Assembly (NCBI GenBank): GCA_964016885.1
Contig: OZ024765.1
Span: forward strand, 12,586,001 to 12,650,000
DNA: 64,000 nucleotides
Reading direction: 5' to 3'
DNA from: Eledone cirrhosa
Lineage: Eukaryota
Below are positions 7,040 to 62,082 of the stretch, one piece after another. Positions within the stretch are counted from its first letter, which is position 1. Each line of letters starts with the position of its first letter. Made by a program: the position numbers and the translations under genes. The notes beneath the pieces are model-generated. The model was not told the DNA's origin. It worked only from the letters and a program-made list of their open reading frames with translations, and ran no database searches.

Positions 7040-7229
7040 TTAATATAGATGAGATTCTACAGGACTAGAACTGTTTCATTCTTTAGAAATCATCAGGGAT
7101 TCCTGATGATTTCTAAAGAATGAAACAGTTCTAGTCCTGTAGAATCTCATCTATATTAAAACCTTTATACTCTGCTATGTATTGAGTACCTTACTTACTG
7201 TGGTTACCTCCGATTCAACCCGGAATAAC

Positions 7230-16865: not shown

Positions 16866-17340
<475 letters not shown>

Positions 17341-20539: not shown

Positions 20540-21520
<981 letters not shown>

Positions 21521-21538
21521 ATATATATATATATATAT

Positions 21539-21720
21539 AGCGAGGGAAAAGTGGTAAGGAACCAGGTGGACCATAACGCACCAAAGTACTCAATACTTAG
21601 GGTAGTAGAGTGGGTAATAGGAGTAAGTAAGACCCCGACGGCTGAGCTCAAGCCGTTTCGACGGTACAGAATTAGCCGTCGAAACGGCTTGAGCTCAGCC
21701 GTCGGGGTCTTATTTACTCC

Positions 21721-21721
<1 letters not shown>
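21539..21721 (-). mobile_element. Fold-back element, family H2, in (TA)n
   Basis: Tail in reverse plus palindrome GACCCCGACGGCTGAGCTCAAGCCGTTTCGACGG..CCGTCGAAACGGCTTGAGCTCAGCCGTCGGGGTC. Confidence 0.7.
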
Positions 21722-34050: not shown

Positions 34051-36010
34051 ACCACCTTACAGTGTGGACTGGGAGCCTTTTTACCGTGTCTCCTACACAA
34101 CCACCTTACAGTGTGGACTGGAAGCCTTTTTACCGTGTCTCCTACACGACGACCATACAGTGTGAACTGGAAGCCTTTTTACCGTGTCTCCTACACGACC
34201 ACCTTACAGCGTGGACTGGGAGCCTTTTTACCGTGTCTCCTACACAACCACCTTACAGTGTGGACAGGGAGCCTTTTTACCGTGTCTCCTACACGACCAC
34301 CTTACAGTGTGGACTGGGAGCCTTTTTACTGTGTCTCCTACACGACCACCTTACAGTGTGGACTGGGAGCCTTTTTACCGTGTCTCCTACACGACCACCT
34401 TACAGTGTGGACAGGGAGCCTTTTTACCGTGTCTCCTACACGACCACCTTACAGTGTGGACTGGGAGCCTTTTTACCGTGTCTCCTACACGAACACCTTA
34501 CAGTGTGGACTGGGAGCCTTTTTACCATGTCTCCTACACGACCACCTTACAGTGTGGACTGGGAGCCTTTTTACCGTGTCTCCTACACGACCACTTTACA
34601 GTGTGGACTGGGAGCCTTTTTACCATGTCTCCTACACGACCACCTTACAGTGTAGACTGGGAGCCTTTTTACCATGTCTCCTACACGACCACCTTACAGT
34701 GTGGACTGGGAGCCTTTTTACCGTGTCTCCTACACGACCACCTTACAGTGTGGACTGGGAGCCTGTTTACCGTGTCTCCTACACGACCACCTTACAGTGT
34801 GGACTGGGAGCCTTTTTGCCGTGTCTCCTACACGACCACCTTACAGTGTGGACTGGGAGCCTTTTTACTGTGTCTCCTACATGACCACCTTACAGTGTGG
34901 ACTGGGAGCCTTTTTACCGTGTCTCCTACACGACCACCTTACAGTGTGGACTGGGAGCCTTTTTACCGTGTCTCCTACACGACCACCTTACAGTGTGGAC
35001 TGGGAGCCTTTTTACTGTGTCTCTTACACGACAACCTTACAGTGTGGACTGGGAGCCTTTTTACCGTGTCTCTTACACGACCTCTTTACAGTGTAGACTG
35101 GGAGCCTTTTTACCATGTCTCCTACACGACCACCTTACAGTGCGGACTGGAAGCCTTTTTACCATGTCTCCTACACGACTACTTTACAGTGTGGACTGGG
35201 AGCCTTTTTGCCGTGTCTCCTACACGACTACTCTACAGTGTGGACTGGGAGCCTTTTTGCCGTGTCTCCTACACGACTACCTTACAGTGTGGACTGGGAG
35301 CCTTTTTGCCGTGTCTCCTACACGACTACCTTACAGTGTGGACTGGGAGCCTTTTTACCATGTCTCCTACACGACCACCTTACAGTATGGACTGGGAGCC
35401 TTTTTACCGTGTCTCCTACACGACCACCTTACAGTGTGGACTGGGAGCCTTTTTACCATGTCTCCTACACGACCACCTTACAGTGTAGACTGGGAGCCTT
35501 TTTACCATGTCTCCTACACGACCACCTTACAGTGTGGACTGGGAGCCTTTTTACCGTGTCTCCTACACGACCACCTTACAGTGTGGACTGGGAGCCTGTT
35601 TACCGTGTCTCCTACACGACCACCTTACAGTGTGGACTGGGAGCCTTTTTGCCGTGTCTCCTACACGACCACCTTACAGTGTGGACTGGGAGCCTTTTTA
35701 CTGTGTCTCCTACATGACCACCTTACAGTGTGGACTGGGAGCCTTTTTACCGTGTCTCCTACACGACCACCTTACAGTGTGGACTGGGAGCCTTTTTACC
35801 GTGTCTCCTACACGACCACCTTACAGTGTGGACTGGGAGCCTTTTTACTGTGTCTCTTACACGACAACCTTACAGTGTGGACTGGGAGCCTTTTTACCGT
35901 GTCTCCTACACGACCACTTTACAGTGTGGACTGGGAGCCTTTTTACCGTGTCTCTTACACGACCACCTTACAGTGTGGACTGGGAGCCTTTTTACCGTGT
36001 CTCCTACACA
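34051..36010. repeat. 49-bp minisatellite, about 40 copies, expanded inside a SINE B-type element
   Basis: Unit ACCACCTTACAGTGTGGACTGGGAGCCTTTTTACCGTGTCTCCTACACG, directly continuing the SINE segment 33932-34050 (GGCTGGATGCCCTTCCTAACACCA). Confidence 0.95.
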
Positions 36011-38915: not shown

Positions 38916-38919
38916 CATA

Positions 38920-39012
<93 letters not shown>

Positions 39013-39013
<1 letters not shown>

Positions 39014-39421
39014 GTAGGAGGTGAGTTTTATTGTAGTACAATAAAGCAATGCAGATATCGGATAAGAAGCACTCTACAGTTTGTAGGACTGGAGTATATA
39101 TAATATATAAGAACAAAAGATGGTTAAAGGAGTTCCATGTATTTTATTATGCGCATTTCAAAAACAAACATCATCATGCAATAATATTTGTGTTTTCATC
39201 AGATAAAACAGGAGAACATGATATGAAGGCTAAAAAACACTTGTGGATAGTGCAGTTTTATATGTTGATTTAAAACTGCACTATCCACAAGTGTTTTTTA
39301 GCCTTCATATCATGTTCTCCTATTTTATCTGATGAAAACACAAATATTATTGCATGATGATGTTTGTTTTTGAAATGCGCATAATAAAATACATGGAACT
39401 CCTTTAACCATCTTTTGATCT

Positions 39422-39428
<7 letters not shown>
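39013..39428 (-). mobile_element. Fold-back hammerhead element, family H3, in (TA)n
   Basis: About 160-bp inverted arms centred near 39265, one hammerhead per arm (39140-39210 minus, 39321-39391 plus). Related copy at 46624-47003. Confidence 0.75.
39321..39391 (+). ncRNA. Type I hammerhead ribozyme (H3)
   Basis: TATTTTAT-CTGATGA-[AAAC ACAAATATTATT GCAT GATGATGTTTGT TTTT]-GAAA-TGCGCA-TA-ATAAAATA. 8-bp stem I, long stem II, palindromic stem III ATGCGCAT. Confidence 0.8.
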
Positions 39429-39488
<60 letters not shown>

Positions 39489-39494
<6 letters not shown>

Positions 39495-39892
39495 ATATTA
39501 ATAAATGGAAACTATATTTATAAAACCATAATTATTTTATTATACATATTTCAAGGGCAACTAAGGCAAATTTTGGTGCGCTTTCATCAGATAAAATACA
39601 AATTTGTTTTATAAATATTGACATACCCGCATAAAGACAACCTTAACGGTTGAGGTTGTCTTTATGCGGGTATGTCAATATTTATAAAACAAATTTGTAT
39701 TTTATCTGATGAAAGCGCACCAAAATTTGCCTTGGTTGCCCTTGAAATATGTATAATAAAATAATTATGGTTTTATAAATATAGTTTCCATTTATTAATA
39801 TATTGAATATTTACTCCACTAAGCTGTTGAGTGCTTTATATCAGTTATAAAAAATGTTAAGCTTGTTGAATCCCAACAAATTAAATATAACG

Positions 39893-39897
<5 letters not shown>
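39489..39897 (+). mobile_element. Fold-back hammerhead element, family H4, in (TA)n
   Basis: Near-perfect palindrome 39489-39808 centred at 39648, then tail with CTGTTGAGTGC. Hammerheads at 39533-39598 (minus) and 39698-39763 (plus). Confidence 0.75.
39698..39763 (+). ncRNA. Type I hammerhead ribozyme (H4)
   Basis: TATTTTAT-CTGATGA-[AAG C GCA CCAA aatttgcc TTGG T TGC C CTT]-GAAA-TATGTA-TA-ATAAAATA. Stem I extends past an internal loop as TATTTATAAAAC/GTTTTATAAATA. Confidence 0.8.
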
Positions 39898-39940
<43 letters not shown>

Positions 39941-39942
<2 letters not shown>

Positions 39943-40266
39943 AAAAAGTATGACCCCGACGGCAGAGCTCAAGCCGTTTCGACGGCTATTTCTGGATTAA
40001 ATTAGAATTTTTAGCCTGGTAAATAAATAGTCGAACTTGTCAAGGGGTACTTGACAATTACAATCTTCCCATATAAGGAAGTACCCCTTGACAAGTTATT
40101 TATTTAGCAGGCTAAAAAGTCTAATTTAGTCTAGAAATAGCCGTCGAAACGGCTTGAGCTCTGCCGTCGGGGTCATACTTTTTCCTATTGCCCACTCTAC
40201 TCCCCTAAGTATTGAGTACTCTGGTGCGTTATGGTCCATCTGGTTCCTTACCACATTTCCTTTGTT
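39941..40266 (+). mobile_element. Fold-back hammerhead element, family H2 (most complete copy), in (TA)n
   Basis: Inverted arms, both reaching the ribozyme core, then tail TATTGAGTACTCTGGTGCGTTATGGTCCATCTGGTTCCTTACCAC. Confidence 0.75.
39953..40048 (-). ncRNA. Type I hammerhead ribozyme, U3-A8 core variant (H2)
   Basis: Minus strand ACCCC-TTGACAA-G TT CGACTATTT...AAATAGCCG T C-GAAA-CGGC(TTGAGCTCT)GCCG-TC-GGGGT, GUC triplet. The plus-strand twin at 40083-40173 has a 5-nt deletion in stem II. Confidence 0.7.
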
Positions 40267-40307
40267 ATATATATATATATATATATATGTTGATACAAAT
40301 GGCTTAA

Positions 40308-43300
40308 CCACCATCACCACCACAACCATCACCATCACCACCACAACTACCGCCACAACCATCACCATCACCACCACAACTACCGCCACAACCATCACCA
40401 TCACCACCACAACTACCGCTACAACCATCACCATCACCACCACAACCATCACCATCACCACCACAACTACCGCCACAATCATCACCATCACCACCACAAC
40501 TACCGCCACAACCATCACCATCACCACCACAACTACCGCCACAACCATCACCATCACCACCACAACTACCGCCACAACCATCACCATCACCACCACAACT
40601 ACCGCCACAACCATCACCATCACCACCACAACTACCGCCACAACCATCACCATCACCACCACAACTACCGCCACAACCATCACCATCACCACCACAACTA
40701 CCGCCACAACCATCACCATCACCACCACAACTACCGCCACAACCATCACCATCACCACCACAACTACCGCCACAACCATCACCATCACCACCACAACTAC
40801 CGCCACAACCATCACCATCACCACCACAACTACCGCCACAACCATCACCACCACAACTACCGCCACAACCATCACCCTCACCACCACAACTACCGCCACA
40901 ACCATCACCATCACCACCACAACTACCGCCACAACCATCACCATCACCATCACCACCACAACTACCGCCACAACCATCACCATCACCACCACAACTACCG
41001 CCACAACCATCACCATCACCACCACAACTACCGCCACAACCATCACCATCACCACCACAACTACCGCCACAACCATCACCATCACCACCACAACTACCGC
41101 CACAACCATCACCATCACCACCACAACTACCGCCACAACCATCACCCTCACCACCACAACTACCGCCACAACCATCACCATCACCACCACAACTACCGCC
41201 ACAACCATCACCATCACCACCACAACTACCGCCACAACCATCACCATCACCACCACAACTACCGCCACAACCATCACCATCACCACCACAACTACCGCCA
41301 CAACCATCACCATCACCACCACAACTACCGCCACAACCATCACCATCACCACCACAACTACCGCCACAACCATCACCATCACCACCACAACTACCGCCAC
41401 AACCATCACCATCACCACCACAACTACCGCCACAACCATCACCATCACCACCACAACTACCGCCACAACCATCACCATCACCACCACAACTACCGCCACA
41501 ACCATCACCATCACCACCACAACTACCGCCACAACCATCACCATCACCACCACAACTACCACCACAACCATCACCATCACCACCACAACTACCGCCACAA
41601 CCATCACCATCACCACCACAACTACCGCCACAACCATCACCATCACCACCACAACTACCGCCACAACCATCACCATCACCACCACAACTACCGCCACAAC
41701 CATCACCATCACCACCACAACTACCGCCACAACCATCACCATCACCACCACAACTACCGCCACAACCATCACCATCACCACCACAACTACCGCCACAACC
41801 ATCACCATCACCACCACAACTACCGCCACAACCATCACCATCACCACCACAACTACCGCCACAACCATCACCATCACCACCACAACTACCGCCACAACCA
41901 TCACCATCACCACCACAACTACCGCCACAACCATCACCACCACAACTACCGCCACAACCATCACCCTCACCACCACAACTACCGCCACAACCATCACCAT
42001 CACCACCACAACTACCGCCACAACCATCACCATCACCACCACAACTACCGCCACAACCATCACCATCACCACCACAACTACCGCCACAACCATCACCATC
42101 ACCACCACAACTACCGCCACAACCATCACCATCACCACCACAACTACCGCCACAACCATCACCATCACCACCACAACTACCGCCACAACCATCACCATCA
42201 CCACCACAACTACCGCCACAACCATCACCATCACCACCACAACTACCGCTACAACCATCACCACCACAACTACCGCCATAACCATCACCATCACCACCAC
42301 AACTACCGCTACAACCATCACCACCACAACTACCGCCACAACCATCACCATCACCACCACAACTACCGCCACAACCATCACCATCACCACCACAACTACC
42401 GCCACAACCATCACCATCACCACCAAAACTACCGCCACAACCATCACCATCACCACCACAACTACCGCCACAACCATCACCATCACCACCACAACTACCG
42501 CCACAACCATCACCATCACCACCACAACTACCACCACAACCATCACCATCACCACCACAACTACCGCCACAACCATCACCATCACCACCACAACTACCGC
42601 CACAACCATCACCATCACCACCACAACTACCGCCACAACCATCACCATCACCACCACAACTACCACCACAACCATCACCATCACCACCACAACTACCGCC
42701 ACAACCATCACCATCACCACCACAACTACCGCCACAACCATCACCATCACCACCACAACTACCGCCACAACCATCACCATCACCACCACAACTACCGCCA
42801 CAACCATCACCATCACCACCACAACTACCGCCACAACCATCACCATCACCACCACAACTACCACCACAACCATCACCATCACCACCACAACTACCGCCAC
42901 AACGATCACCATCACCACCACAACTACCGCCACAACCATCACCATCACCACCACAACTACCGCCACAACCATCACCATCACCACCACAACTACCGCCACA
43001 ACCATCACCATCACCACCACAACTACCGCCACAACCATCACCATCACCACCACAACTACCGCCACAACCATCACCATCACCACCACAACTACCGCCACAA
43101 CCATCACCATCACCACCACAACTACCGCCACAACCATCACCATCACCACCACAACTACCGCCACAACCATCACCATCACCACCACAACTACCACCACAAC
43201 CATCACCATCACCACCACAACTACCGCCACAACCATCACCATCACCACCACAACTACCGCCACAACCATCACCATCACCACCACAACTACCACCACAACC

Positions 43301-44236
43301 ATCACCATCACCACCACAACTACCGCCACAACCATCACCATCACCACCACAACTACCGCCACAACCATCACCATCACCACCACAACTACCGCCACAACCA
43401 TCACCATCACCACCACAACTACCGCCACAACCATCACCATCACCACCACAACTACCGCCACAACCATCACCATCACCACCACAACTACCGCCACAACCAT
43501 CACCATCACCACCACAACTACCGCCACAACCATCACCATCACCACCACAACTACCGCCACAACCATCACCATCACCACCACAACTACCGCCACAACCATC
43601 ACCATCACCACCACAACTACCGCCACAACCATCACCATCACCACCACAACTACCGCCACAACCATCACCATCACCACCACAACTACCGCCACAACCATCA
43701 CCATCACCACCACAACTACCGCCACAACCATCACCATCACCACCACAACTACCGCCACAACCATCACCATCACCACCACAACTACCGCCACAACCATCAC
43801 CATCACCACCACAACTACCACCACAACCATCACCATCACCACCACAACTACAGCCACAACCATCACCATCACCACCACAACTACCGCCACAACCATCACC
43901 ATCACCACCACAACTACCGCCACAACCATCACCATCACCACCACAACTACCGCCACAACCATCACCATCACCACCACAACTACCGCCACAACCATCACCA
44001 TCACCACCACAACTACCGCCACAACCATCACCATCACCACCACAACTACCGCCACAACCATCACCATCACCACCACAACTACCGCCACAACCATCACCAT
44101 CACCACCACAACTACCGCCACAACCATCACCATCACCACCACAACTACCGCCACAACCATCACCATCACCACCACAACTACCGCCACAACCATCACCATC
44201 ACCACCACAACTACCGCCACAACCATCACCATCACA
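40308..44236. repeat. 33-bp minisatellite, about 119 copies
   Basis: Unit ACCACCACAACTACCGCCACAACCATCACCATC, highly homogeneous, with occasional 27-bp units. Confidence 0.97.
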
Positions 44237-58294: not shown

Positions 58295-59366
58295 ATGCTG
58301 GTGCCATGACAAAAGACACCCAGTCCCCCTTGTAAGGTCGTACTGCTGCTCCCATGATAAAAAGTATCCAGTCAACCCTGTAAGGTGTTAATACAGGTGC
58401 CATGACAAAAGGTACCCAGTCCTCTCTGTAAGGTGCTGGTGCCATGACAAAAAGTCCCCAGTCTATCCTGTATAGTGGTCGTACTGGTGCCATGACAAAA
58501 AGTACCCAGTCTATCCTGTATAGTGGTCGTACTGGTGCCATGACAAAAAGTACCCAGTACACCCTGTATAGTGGTCGTACTGGTGCCATGACAAAAAGTA
58601 CCCAGTCTATCCTGTATAGTGGTCGTACTGGTGCCATGACAAAAAGTACCCAGTACACCCTGTATAGTGGTCGTACTGGTGCCATGACAAAAAGTACCCA
58701 GTCTATCCTGTATAGTGGTCGTACTGGTGCCATGACAAAAAGTACCCAGTCTATCCTGTATAGTGGTCGTACTGGTGCCATGACAAAAAGTACCCAGTAC
58801 ACCCTGTATAGTGGTCGTACTGGTGCCATGACAAAAAGTACCCAGTCTATCCTGTATAGTGGTCGTACTGGTGCCATGACAAAAAGTACCCAGTCTATCC
58901 TGTATAGTGGTCGTACTGGTGCCATGACAAAAAGTACCCAGTCTATCCTGTATAGTGGTCGTACTGGTGCCATGACAAAAAGTACCCAGTACACCCTGTA
59001 TAGTGGTCGTACTGGTGCCATGACAAAAAGTACCCAGTCTATCCTGTATAGTGGTCGTACTGGTGCCATGACAAAAAGTCCCCAGTCTATCCTGTATAGT
59101 GGTCGTACTGGTGCCATGACAAAAAGTACCCAGTACACCCTGTATAGTGGTCGTACTGGTGCCATGACAAAAAGTCCCCAGGCTATCCTGTATAGTGGTC
59201 ATACTGGTGCCATGACAAAAAGTACCCAGTCTATCCTGTATAGTGGTCATACTGGTGCCATGACAAAAAGTACCCAGTCTATCCTGTATAGTGGTCGTAC
59301 TGGTGCCATGACAAAAAGTCCCCAGTCTATCCTGTATAGTGGTCATACTGGTGCCATGACAAAAAG
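58295..59366. repeat. 48-bp minisatellite (about 19 homogeneous plus 3 degenerate copies) inside a SINE B-type element
   Basis: Unit TGCCATGACAAAAAGTACCCAGTCTATCCTGTATAGTGGTCGTACTGG, followed by SINE segment AAGGGCATCCAGCCATAAAAA...AAGCATGGAAAA (59440-59570). Confidence 0.95.
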
Positions 59367-59601
59367 GTGATAGTGCCAATGCTAGAACAAAAAGCACCCA
59401 GTCCACTCTGTAAGCTCCCAGTACATACTGTTAAGTGGTTCACATTAGCAAGGGCATCCAGCCATAAAAAACAACAAACCAGAAATGGAAGATATGAGAC
59501 AAGACATGGTCACCTGACCTGTCCAGTCTCACCATGTGACAGTTGATCTCACTCATACAAGCATGGAAAATTGATTTTCAACTGTGATGAAAAAAAACAC
59601 A

Positions 59602-61958
59602 CAGTCCACGGTGTAATGTGGCCGTGTAAGCAACACGGTAAAAACCTCCCAGCCCCACACTGTAAATGTGGTTGGTGTTAGGAAGGGCATCCAGCTGTAG
59701 AAAACACGCCAGACAGTCCACGGTGTAATGTGGCCGTGTAGGCAACACGGTAAAAACCTCCCAGACCCACACTGTAAATGTGGTTGGTGTTAGGAAGGGC
59801 ATCCAGCTGTAGAAAACCCGCCAGACAGTCCACGCTGTAATGTGGCCGTGTAGGCAACACGGTAAAAACCTCCCAGACCCACACTGTAAATGTAGTTGGT
59901 GTTAGGAGGGGCATCCAACTGTAGAAAACCTGCCAGACAGTCCACGCTGTAATGTGGCCGTGTAGGCAACACGGTAAAAACCTCCCAGACCCACACTGTA
60001 AATGTGGTTGGTGTTAGGAAGGGCATCCAGCTGTAGAAAACCTGCCAGACAGTCCACGCTGTAATGTGGCCGTGTAGGCAACACGGTAAAAACCTCCCAG
60101 ACCCACACTGTAAATGTGGTTGGTGTTAGGAAGGGCATCCAGCTGTAGAAAACCCGCCAGACAGTCCACGCTGTAATGTGGCCGTGTAGGCAACACGGTA
60201 AAAACCTCCCAGACCCACACTGTAAATGTGGTTGGTGTTAGGAAGGGCATCCAGCTGTAGAAAACCCGCCACACAGTCCACGGTGTAATGTGGACGTGTA
60301 GGCAACACGGTAAAAACCTCCCAGTCCCACACTGTAAACGTGGTTGGTGTTAGGAAGGGCATCCAGCTGTAGAAAACCCGCCAGACAGTCCACGCTGTAA
60401 TGTGGCCGTGTAGGCAACACGGTAAAAACCTCCCAGTCCCACACTGTAAATGTGGTTGGTGTTAGGAAGGGCATCCAGCTGTAGAAAACCCGCCAGACAG
60501 TCCACGCTGTAATGTGGCCGTGTAGGCAACACGGTAAAAACCTCCCAGCCCCACACTGTAAACGTGGTTGGTGTTAGGAAGGGCATCCAGCTGTAGAAAA
60601 CCCGCCAGACAGTCCACGCTGTAATGTGGCCGTGTAGGCAACACGGTAAAAACCTCCCAGTCCCACACTGTAAATGTGGTTGGTGTTAGGAAGGGCATCC
60701 AGCTGTAGAAAACCCGCCACACAGTCCACGCTGTAATGTGGCCGTGTAGGCAACACGGTAAAAACCTCCCAGTCCCACACTGTAAATGTGGTAGGTGTTA
60801 GGAAGGGCATCCAGCTGTAGAAAACCCGCCAGACAGTCCACGGTGTAATGTGGCCGTGTAGGCAACACGGTAAAAACCTCCCAGACCCACACTGTAAATG
60901 TGGTTGGTGTTAGGAAGGGCATCCAACTGTAGAAAACCTGCCAGACAGTCCACGCTGTAATGTGGCCGTGTAGGCAACACGGTAAAAACCTCCCAGCCCC
61001 ACACTGTAAATGTGGTTGGTGTTAGGAAGGGCATCCAACTGTAGAAAACCTGCCAGACAGTCCACGCTGTAATGTGGCCGTGTAGGCAACACGGTAAAAA
61101 CCTCCCAGCCCCACACTGTAAATGTGGTTGGTGTTAGGAGGGGCATCCAGCTGTAGAAAACCTGCCAGACAGTCCACGCTGTAATGTGGCCGTGTAGGCA
61201 ACATGGTAAAAACCTCCCAGACCCACACTGTAAATGTGGTTGGTGTTAGGAGGGGCATCCAGCTGTAGAAAACCTGCCAGACAGTCCACGCTGTAATGTG
61301 GCCGTGTAGGCAACACGGTAAAAACCTCCCAGACCCACACTGTAAATGTGGTTGGTGTTAGGAAGGGCATCCAACTGTAGAAAACCTGCCAGACAGTCCA
61401 CGCTGTAATGTGGCCGTGTAGGCAACACGGTAAAAACCTCCCAGCCCCACACTGTAAATGTGGTTGGTGTTAGGAGGGGCATCCAGCTGTAGAAAACCTG
61501 CCAGACAGTCCACGCTGTAATGTGGCCGTGTAGGCAACACGGTAAAAACCTCCCAGACCCACACTGTAAATGTGGTTGGTGTTAGGAGGGGCATCCAGCT
61601 GTAGAAAACCTGCCAGACAGTCCACGCTGTAATGTGGCCGTGTAGGCAACACGGTAAAAACCTCCCAGACCCACACTGTAAATGTGGTTGGTGTTAGGAA
61701 GGGCATCCAACTGTAGAAAACCTGCCAGACAGTCCACGCTGTAATGTGGCCGTGTAGGCAACACGGTAAAAACCTCCCAGCCCCACACTGTAAATGTGGT
61801 TGGTGTTAGGAGGGGCATCCAACTGTAGAAAACCTGCCAGACAGTCCACGCTGTAATGTGGCCGTGTAGGCAACACGGTAAAAACCTCCCAGACCCACAC
61901 TGTAAATGTGGTTGGTGTTAGGAAGGGCATCCAACTGTAGAAAACCTGCCAGACAGTC
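59602..61958. repeat. 112-bp satellite, about 21 copies, inside a SINE B-type element
   Basis: Unit ACAGTCCACGCTGTAATGTGGCCGTGTAGGCAACACGGTAAAAACCTCCCAGACCCACACTGTAAATGTGGTTGGTGTTAGGAAGGGCATCCAGCTGTAGAAAACCTGCCAG. SINE tail continues 61959-62070 to (TGA)n. Confidence 0.95.
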
Positions 61959-62082
61959 CTATGCGAGCAAGACAACCACTCTTGCCTCAAGTGGGAAAAC
62001 CCCCGTCCAAACCCATGCAAGCGTGGAACACGGACGTTAAACGTTGATGATGATGATGATGATGATGATGATGTTGTTGTTG

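Follow-up and report, generated by a model that had tools for sequence, protein, structure and literature searches.

Three hammerhead-bearing fold-backs in one TA repeat of Eledone cirrhosa are probably truncated insertions of Penelope-like retrotransposons

The Hydra clade comprises Penelope-like elements with a C-terminal endonuclease, among them Hydra-1_Obim of Octopus bimaculoides, which inserts in (TA)n and for which no pLTR is listed (Craig et al. 2021, PMC8557442). In the layout that this source gives for Penelope-like elements, the pLTRs are partly tandem and have next to them a 5'-truncated copy in inverted orientation; the origin of the inverted repeats, of the tails and of the microsatellite bias is named there as open. 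For the head-to-head palindromes of rotifer Penelopes self-priming has been proposed (PMC3846280). Hammerhead ribozymes of Penelope elements with a palindromic stem III need to dimerize and cleave poorly in vitro, and U3-A8 instead of C3-G8 has been published for those of a Schistosoma Penelope (Cercyon) (Cervera and de la Pena 2014, PMC4209133). Finally, in vitro work on a Penelope protein of the anole showed that it cuts and extends both target strands, with starts at two sites on either side of the tail, and that cleavage by the anole hammerhead depended on its protein (Frangieh et al. 2024, PMC11167929).

The locus compared here with these systems lies in a stretch of 64 kb of Eledone cirrhosa DNA, called the window below. 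An initial annotation had reported three consecutive fold-back elements, H3 (39013-39428), H4 (39489-39897) and H2 (39941-40266), with (TA)n between them, and both the coordinates and the succession are borne out (Table 1). The arms stand head to head in all three, with the element 3' ends pointing outward into TA. Each element, 326-416 nt in size, had been called a palindrome; the inverted repeats (96-98% complementary) agree with this, with the qualification that an unpaired tail of 78-89 nt is added on one side, the left in H3 and the right in H4 and H2. In each family the 3' end falls at one of two fixed points separated by 78-89 nt, referred to as the short end and the tail end. As sequence, the three structures are far beyond chance.

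The second, two-element stack reported for the window is real as well, and a single complete hammerhead was found in it (+21469), its H2 part being without the first core box. A stack within one family was observed at 16903-17305, where a short+short H2 fold-back is followed by 105 nt of TA and a second H2 fold-back. The window also holds minisatellites at 34051-36009, 40436-44235, 58298-59366 and 59601-61959, with periods of 49, 33, 48 and 112 nt, respectively; the units of 48, 49 and 112 nt have words in common.

Table 1. Features of the triple stack and of the second stack (window coordinates)
Feature	Positions	Strand	Remarks
(TA)n left flank	38917-39011		95 nt; two C interruptions
H3 left arm	39013-39263	-	inverted 5'-truncated pLTR, tail end; tail 39013-39094; matches the pLTR+tail before the L091 ORF
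H3 inverted repeat	39095-39263/39268-39436		97% complementary, 169-nt arms
H3 hammerhead	39140-39210	-	type I motif; core CUGAUGA at 39202; palindromic stem III UGCGCA
H3 right arm	39266-39428	+	pLTR, short end; 163 nt 100% identical to 7 other matches
H3 hammerhead	39321-39391	+	type I motif; core 39329; predicted cut after 39383, from hammerhead numbering
(TA)n, H3 short end to H4 short end	39427-39489		63 nt
H4 inverted repeat	39483-39647/39649-39813		98% complementary, 165-nt arms
H4 left arm	39489-39648	-	inverted pLTR, short end
H4 hammerhead	39533-39598	-	type I motif; core 39590; stem III UAUGUA
H4 right arm	39649-39897	+	pLTR + 84-nt tail (39813-39896)
H4 hammerhead	39698-39763	+	type I motif; core 39706; predicted cut after 39755
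(TA)n, H4 tail end to H2 short end	39897-39940		44 nt
H2 inverted repeat	39938-40029/40097-40188		96% complementary, 92-nt arms
H2 left arm	39941-40052	-	inverted pLTR, short end; contains U3-A8 hammerhead motif
H2 hammerhead	39948-40052	-	U3-A8 motif, core 40043; MFE fold of the isolated motif is a three-way junction
H2 right arm	40053-40266	+	pLTR + 78-nt tail (40189-40266)
H2 hammerhead	40079-40180	+	U3-A8 motif, core 40088, GUC site 40166-40168; 5-nt deletion in stem II
(TA)n right flank	40266-40288		23 nt
Second stack	21330-21721		H1-family fold-back (core +21469), TA 21518-21539, H2 fold-back without first core box

The elements had been taken for stand-alone ribozyme elements. Judged from their longer copies, they are instead truncated 3' ends (pLTRs) of three protein-coding Penelope-like families with Hydra-clade motifs. 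The parents were located by tblastn searches of wider stretches; patterns for a tail end without TA gave mostly mutated TA tracts. Two H3 parents, L091 and L092, contain an intact ORF of 820 aa in the order TA, inverted pLTR with tail, pLTR with tail, ORF, a 1.1-kb 3' UTR ending in a short-end pLTR, and TA. In L140 a decayed ORF has H2 around it in the same layout, and in L136 an H4 arm continues into a related, decayed ORF; the decayed H2 and H4 relatives display 33-65% identity. The arrangement in L091, L092 and L140 is the one described for Penelope-like elements (PMC8557442). Directly behind the H3 short end of L091 (3129-3180), where the tail starts, there is a small hairpin (-8 kcal/mol). 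An older H3-like family, with 60-76% protein and 87% pLTR identity, was seen at L145 (G000:C2:124424000-124433500), with the end of an ORF, a hammerhead and a tail.

Read by eye, the 820-aa ORF has a YRDD core and a C-terminal xYxC...YFG/CxxC/CxH region, in line with a reverse transcriptase (RT) that has a GIY-YIG-type endonuclease behind it. The H3 ORF had no hits in sequence searches against Pfam and PDB, and the RT, the endonuclease and the clade assignment are based on motifs recognized by eye. The DKT motif reads HSDKTNN in H3, HSDKTGN in H2 (L140) and KSDKTNN in L137, which was put with H4 by its likeness to L136. The linker (CxCX5C) and the endonuclease motifs CxxC and CxH read CNCRIKNKC, CNLC and CLH in H3, CNCPDRSTC, CNLC and CKH in H2, and CNCRNKSNC, CSLC and CKH in H4. 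The GIY-YIG core has a single Cys in all three proteins, as judged by eye, and no CCHH. At the N-terminal RWK position RLRWT (H3) and RLRWR (H2, H4) are found, with RW kept and the third residue different.

These properties agree with the published Hydra clade in the single ORF of less than 3 kb, the DKT, the CxCX5C linker and the endonuclease CxxC and CxH, and also in the pLTR hammerhead, the (TA)n target, the inverted 5'-truncated copy and the tail on one end only (PMC8557442). Differences from that description are the tails of 78-89 instead of 30-40 nt, RWT/RWR instead of RWK, and the strict pairing of a short with a tail end discussed below, which the available text of the description leaves unstated (PMC8557442). 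Five short probes from H2, H3 and H4 had no match in the text of its supplement, and the three look like families other than Hydra-1_Obim. The Neptune clade was ruled out by the linker, which is CxCX5C and not CX2-5CxxC, and by the absence of CCHH; the Naiad clade was ruled out by the C-terminal position of the endonuclease motifs and the presence of hammerheads.

Six hammerheads had been claimed for the 1.25 kb. Six motifs are present, of which four are canonical, one is a U3-A8 variant and one a U3-A8 variant with a damaged stem II. The canonical ones, located in H3 and H4 by a motif scan (type I, CTGATGA...GAAA), have an 8-bp stem I and a six-base palindromic stem III. H2 has no CTGANGA; its cores read TTGACAA, with stem I ACCCC/GGGGT, stem III CGGC/GCCG and a GUC site. 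A view of H2 as a half hammerhead was dropped, since the family copies carry the U3-A8 core: TTGANAA, with position 7 free, occurs in 99 of the first 100 listed of 592 matches, all of the 5-C subfamily of H2, and CTGANGA in none of those. Among 55 H2 locus rows, 44 have TTGANAA together with GAAA or a one-base variant and TC. Four rows (L130, L163, L047 and L120) show CTGAGAA, either as C3 opposite A8 or as a CUGA-GA one base shorter, which may represent either a transition between C3-G8 and U3-A8 or a lineage without activity. Rfam at gathering score yielded no hit in the 64-kb window.

Type I folding, the long stem II, the palindromic stem III, the occurrence of motif pairs 100-700 bp apart on opposite strands and the U3-A8 variant are all shared with the described Penelope pLTR hammerheads (PMC4209133). 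The present motifs differ from these in the A-U instead of G-C at the base of stem II in H3 and H4, and in the combination, in H2, of U3-A8 with a stem III of 4-5 bp closed by a palindromic GAGCUC loop (PMC4209133); the H2 motif could fold as a monomer or as a dimer.

Loci in which the two arms both extend as far as the core number about 12 of 40 in H3, 6 of 40 in H4 and 2 of 50 in H2. Most H2 fold-backs are joined inside stem II and have no first core box (L113-L132, L149-L178; in the window 21628-21712), and the one at 39941 is unusual among them in keeping both cores. Further hammerhead motifs, of other families or subfamilies, were seen in the window at 7103, 20208, 21469, 45139, 46904, 51859, 51879 and 54974, several of them in fold-backs. 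In the continuation of an H4 arm at L037 (G000:C1:277275844-277279090) a second, different hammerhead lies on the same strand, about 330 nt upstream of the H4 one.

The (TA)n had been proposed to act as a reusable landing pad, and genome-wide all three families do end in it. Exact tail-end matches number 34,574 for H2, 10,770 for H3 and 2,134 for one H4 variant, and 29,898 of those of H2 continue as TATATA. Among loci picked by their tail end, TA follows the tail in 35/40 for H3, 33/40 for H4 and 47/50 for H2, numbers that are biased against TA as 20 H4 and 20 H2 loci were chosen for an atypical next base. The copies thus run into TA as the initial annotation had anticipated, and the TA that remains on either side of an insertion is available to later ones. 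The frequency of stacking given below (8/100) fits simulations both with and without the proposed regeneration of TA. Flanks of at least 16 nt were found in 71 of 90 position-picked loci, where 58% is expected for pure splitting and 100% for full duplication or regeneration; some regrowth of TA is possible, flank length being a hint that slippage would produce as well.

How the arms are paired is informative on the way in which the fold-backs arose. Among 130 loci picked by tail end, 68 are short+tail, 7 tail+tail and 3 other, and 52 have no adjacent inverted arm in the searched range (reference plus 120 nt); the counts include two row pairs that are likely the same or duplicated insertions. 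Short+tail thus makes up 68 of the 75 pairs that are either short+tail or tail+tail. All three window elements conform to it, and the seven tail+tail pairs do not fit a strict rule of one of each. In 18 of the 68 short+tail insertions the two arms have no sequence in common (5/18 in H3, 11/21 in H4 and 2/29 in H2), and non-overlapping arms were also found in L007, L020 and L025. At L136 a tailed arm of 40 nt abuts an inverted arm of about 2.9 kb.

The inner junctions are clustered. In H3 they fall about 69 nt ahead of the core, on the palindrome CATATG, where 13 of 18 short arms start at reference position 398-399 (L219-L238, L259-L278); in H4 they lie about 60-80 nt before the core, near an AACCT/AGGTT repeat, and in H2 inside stem II. 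Such clusters could mark the 5' end of the RNA, palindromic joining sites or a likeness to TA. At 7 of 40 H3 loci both arms start at the same CATATG, which could reflect either a fold-back that spread as a unit or self-priming.

Our preferred explanation, which we hold to be probable, is that the stack consists of three 5'-truncated head-to-head insertions of Penelope-like elements, from three families with Hydra-clade motifs and a hammerhead in the end repeat, that likely landed successively and by chance in one TA repeat, each likely from two RT starts, one per nicked strand. The endonuclease of the element would nick both strands of (TA)n; of the two target 3' ends, one would prime at the end of the RNA tail and one at the short end. 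Synthesis of either cDNA would stop early, and the inner ends of the two would be joined by microhomology, while the TA remaining on both sides would be a fresh target. No empty pre-insertion allele of the stack was seen.

The same Penelope parentage can be combined with another origin of the palindromes, in which the RNA or cDNA folds back and copies itself. Such self-priming is the mechanism published for head-to-head palindromes (PMC3846280), and the positions of the junctions at self-complementary spots (CATATG in H3, stem II in H2, the vicinity of AACCT/AGGTT in H4) are in its favour. It would leave the arms as copies of each other, whereas in the 18 of 68 insertions whose arms share nothing neither arm can have been copied from the other; self-priming cannot make these, and two primings can. 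Nor does self-priming by itself predict a fixed short+tail pairing. The unequal ends and the non-overlapping arms therefore favour two primings per insertion, and we consider self-priming improbable as the general origin of the palindromes.

Two primings on one RNA have a precedent in L1 twin priming, in which two target ends prime on the same RNA and an inversion joined by microhomology results. In L1 one primer sits at the poly(A) tail and the other at a variable internal site, and the two pieces do not overlap. Here, by contrast, both starts are fixed and close to each other, so that the arms usually overlap as a palindrome. Poseidon of Anolis resembles the present families in vitro in its two fixed 3' ends bounding a tail, its AT-rich target, the cutting and extension of both strands and a hammerhead upstream of the ends; it belongs to another clade, and its description does not appear to link the two start sites to the two arms of one inverted insertion (PMC11167929). 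We see an even chance that a fixed form of twin priming operates in Penelope-type elements more generally, with both nicked strands of (TA)n copying one RNA from a short-end and a tail-end start and the same-sense cDNAs joining where the RNA is self-complementary or ends. If so, an antisense arm would precede the hammerhead in every such fold-back, and tens of thousands of insertions would be built-in silenced ribozymes and dsRNA substrates for editing and small-RNA pathways. The short+tail pairing and the non-overlapping arms offer a genomic test of twin priming against self-priming, and the young intact copies of the H3 family are material for an in vitro assay. A literature search, outside most subscription journals, turned up no description of these families, of twin priming in Penelopes or of the short+tail pairing.

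Does a stack of three call for an explanation beyond the single insertions? Forty stretches of 10 kb, chosen regardless of elements, contain 550 TA tracts with a length of 16 nt or more. One H1-H4 end borders 47 of these tracts and two border another 3, so that element ends occupy 4.8% of the tract sides. Another H1-H4 end stands across the flanking tract for 8 of 100 tail ends, after exclusion of the copies in the window, of duplicates and of ends with no tract reaching 16 nt; this frequency exceeds a uniform null of 2.5% (P=0.004) but not 4.8% (P=0.11). An enrichment of stacking had appeared under a uniform Poisson model (12/140 versus 2.6%; 8/100 versus 2.5%) and was gone after weighting by tract length. 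Simulations of length-proportional targeting gave 0.045-0.083 overall, with 0.055-0.070 for splitting at matched density and 0.070-0.083 for full regeneration; at the same insertion rate and with no regeneration, two simulations with different seed length sets gave 0.029 and 0.045. The library of ends was restricted to H1-H4, and a wider one was dropped as its clusters were unconfirmed as Penelope ends.

Scaled to the 3.0-Gb genome, 1.25 tracts/kb correspond to roughly 170,000 H1-H4 insertions, and chains of three would number about 1,000, both figures being accurate to an order of magnitude at best. For H3, H4 and H2 in exactly this combination and with the six cores present, a rough estimate is as low as about 0.2 chains per genome, chiefly owing to the H2 loci, of which only 2 in 50 retain both cores; the trio was chosen after the fact, and other families enlarge the pool. 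The window is richer than average, with 17 of 90 tracts touching an end, 4 of them on both sides. It appears likely that the triple stack needs no special mechanism and piled up by chance through the shared TA target. The stack itself is then the ordinary result of many TA-targeting families with a common target, and its value lies in the geometry of the insertions. Based on the best identity to other copies (100% for H3, 98% for H4 and 96% for H2), H2 was likely inserted before H4, and H4 before H3.

The initial annotation had expected a transcript from either strand to meet three potential self-cleavage sites and to form long dsRNA hairpins. Three long hairpins are indeed predicted by equilibrium folding, which ignores co-transcriptional kinetics and help from proteins. 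In each element the antisense arm is transcribed before the hammerhead on either strand, 87-89% of the bases are paired in the fold of the whole stack, and all six cores are buried. To force the hammerhead fold would cost 94-108 kcal/mol per element relative to the arm-arm duplex, and in the full hairpins the core bases are unpaired with a probability below 0.001. With the antisense arm first and the cores predicted to be paired, and with H3 and H4 motifs that need a dimer, three usable cleavage sites per strand are not supported; a source of dsRNA is likelier. The stack, if transcribed, would thus likely give three long dsRNA hairpins with mostly silenced hammerheads, and the fold-backs are a large predicted source of long dsRNA in the Eledone cirrhosa genome. 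Between the arms at the H3/H4/H2 locus no sign of A-to-G hyper-editing was seen.

The same predictions bear on a functional reading, in which the stack is a selected RNA cassette and a host transcript is cut by the hammerheads, possibly by a hetero-dimer of H3 and H4, or is regulated by dsRNA. The stem I strands of H3 and H4 are identical and lie 377 nt apart on one strand, and the integrity of all six cores, seen in few copies, would suit a selected function. Intact cores are nevertheless expected of young insertions, and the cores are predicted to be more than 99.9% paired in the full hairpins. The hetero-dimer was rejected on the weakness of its stem III heteroduplex (-1.6 kcal/mol versus -10.5 for H3/H3). 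No gene context is evident either, the long ORFs of the window coinciding with tandem repeats, and we regard selection for such a cassette as very unlikely.

Slightly less credible still are non-coding fold-back elements, of a retrozyme- or MITE-like kind, that move as ready-made palindromes. Their similar sizes (326-416 nt) and the use of a single palindrome for the junction at 7 of 40 H3 loci would agree with this, whereas most junctions vary between copies and the arms of longer copies continue into the 3' UTR and the ORF. A MITE or foldback DNA transposon was ruled out by the unequal ends and by parents encoding an RT and an endonuclease. Animal non-LTR retrozymes likewise have type I hammerheads derived from Penelope pLTRs, but they are head-to-tail tandem repeats, in contrast to the head-to-head pairs cut from coding elements in H3, H4 and H2 (bioRxiv 10.64898/2026.07.22.740005). 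With arms that are inverted and no tandem period over the elements, this class was ruled out as well.

Fold-back read chimeras or errors of assembly can practically be dismissed as the source of the palindromes: the exact H2 junction of the window was not seen in the runs X1, X2, X4 and X22, which proves nothing, and the insertion may be polymorphic, whereas the arms differ from each other (3 substitutions and a 2-nt gap in 165 for H3, 2 in 159 for H4, 4 substitutions and a 5-nt gap for H2), the mirroring stops at family-specific ends with unrelated, unmirrored repeats as outer flanks, many other H2 fold-back joints occur in contigs of the public run X1 (which may be the source sample), and the architecture is in print from other animals (PMC8557442, PMC3846280). 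A locus with mirrored outer flanks, as in a chimera or an inverted duplication, was observed elsewhere in the assembly: the tail+tail H2 fold-back L071 (G000:C18:2574010-2577177) is either an inverted duplication or a true assembly fold-back.
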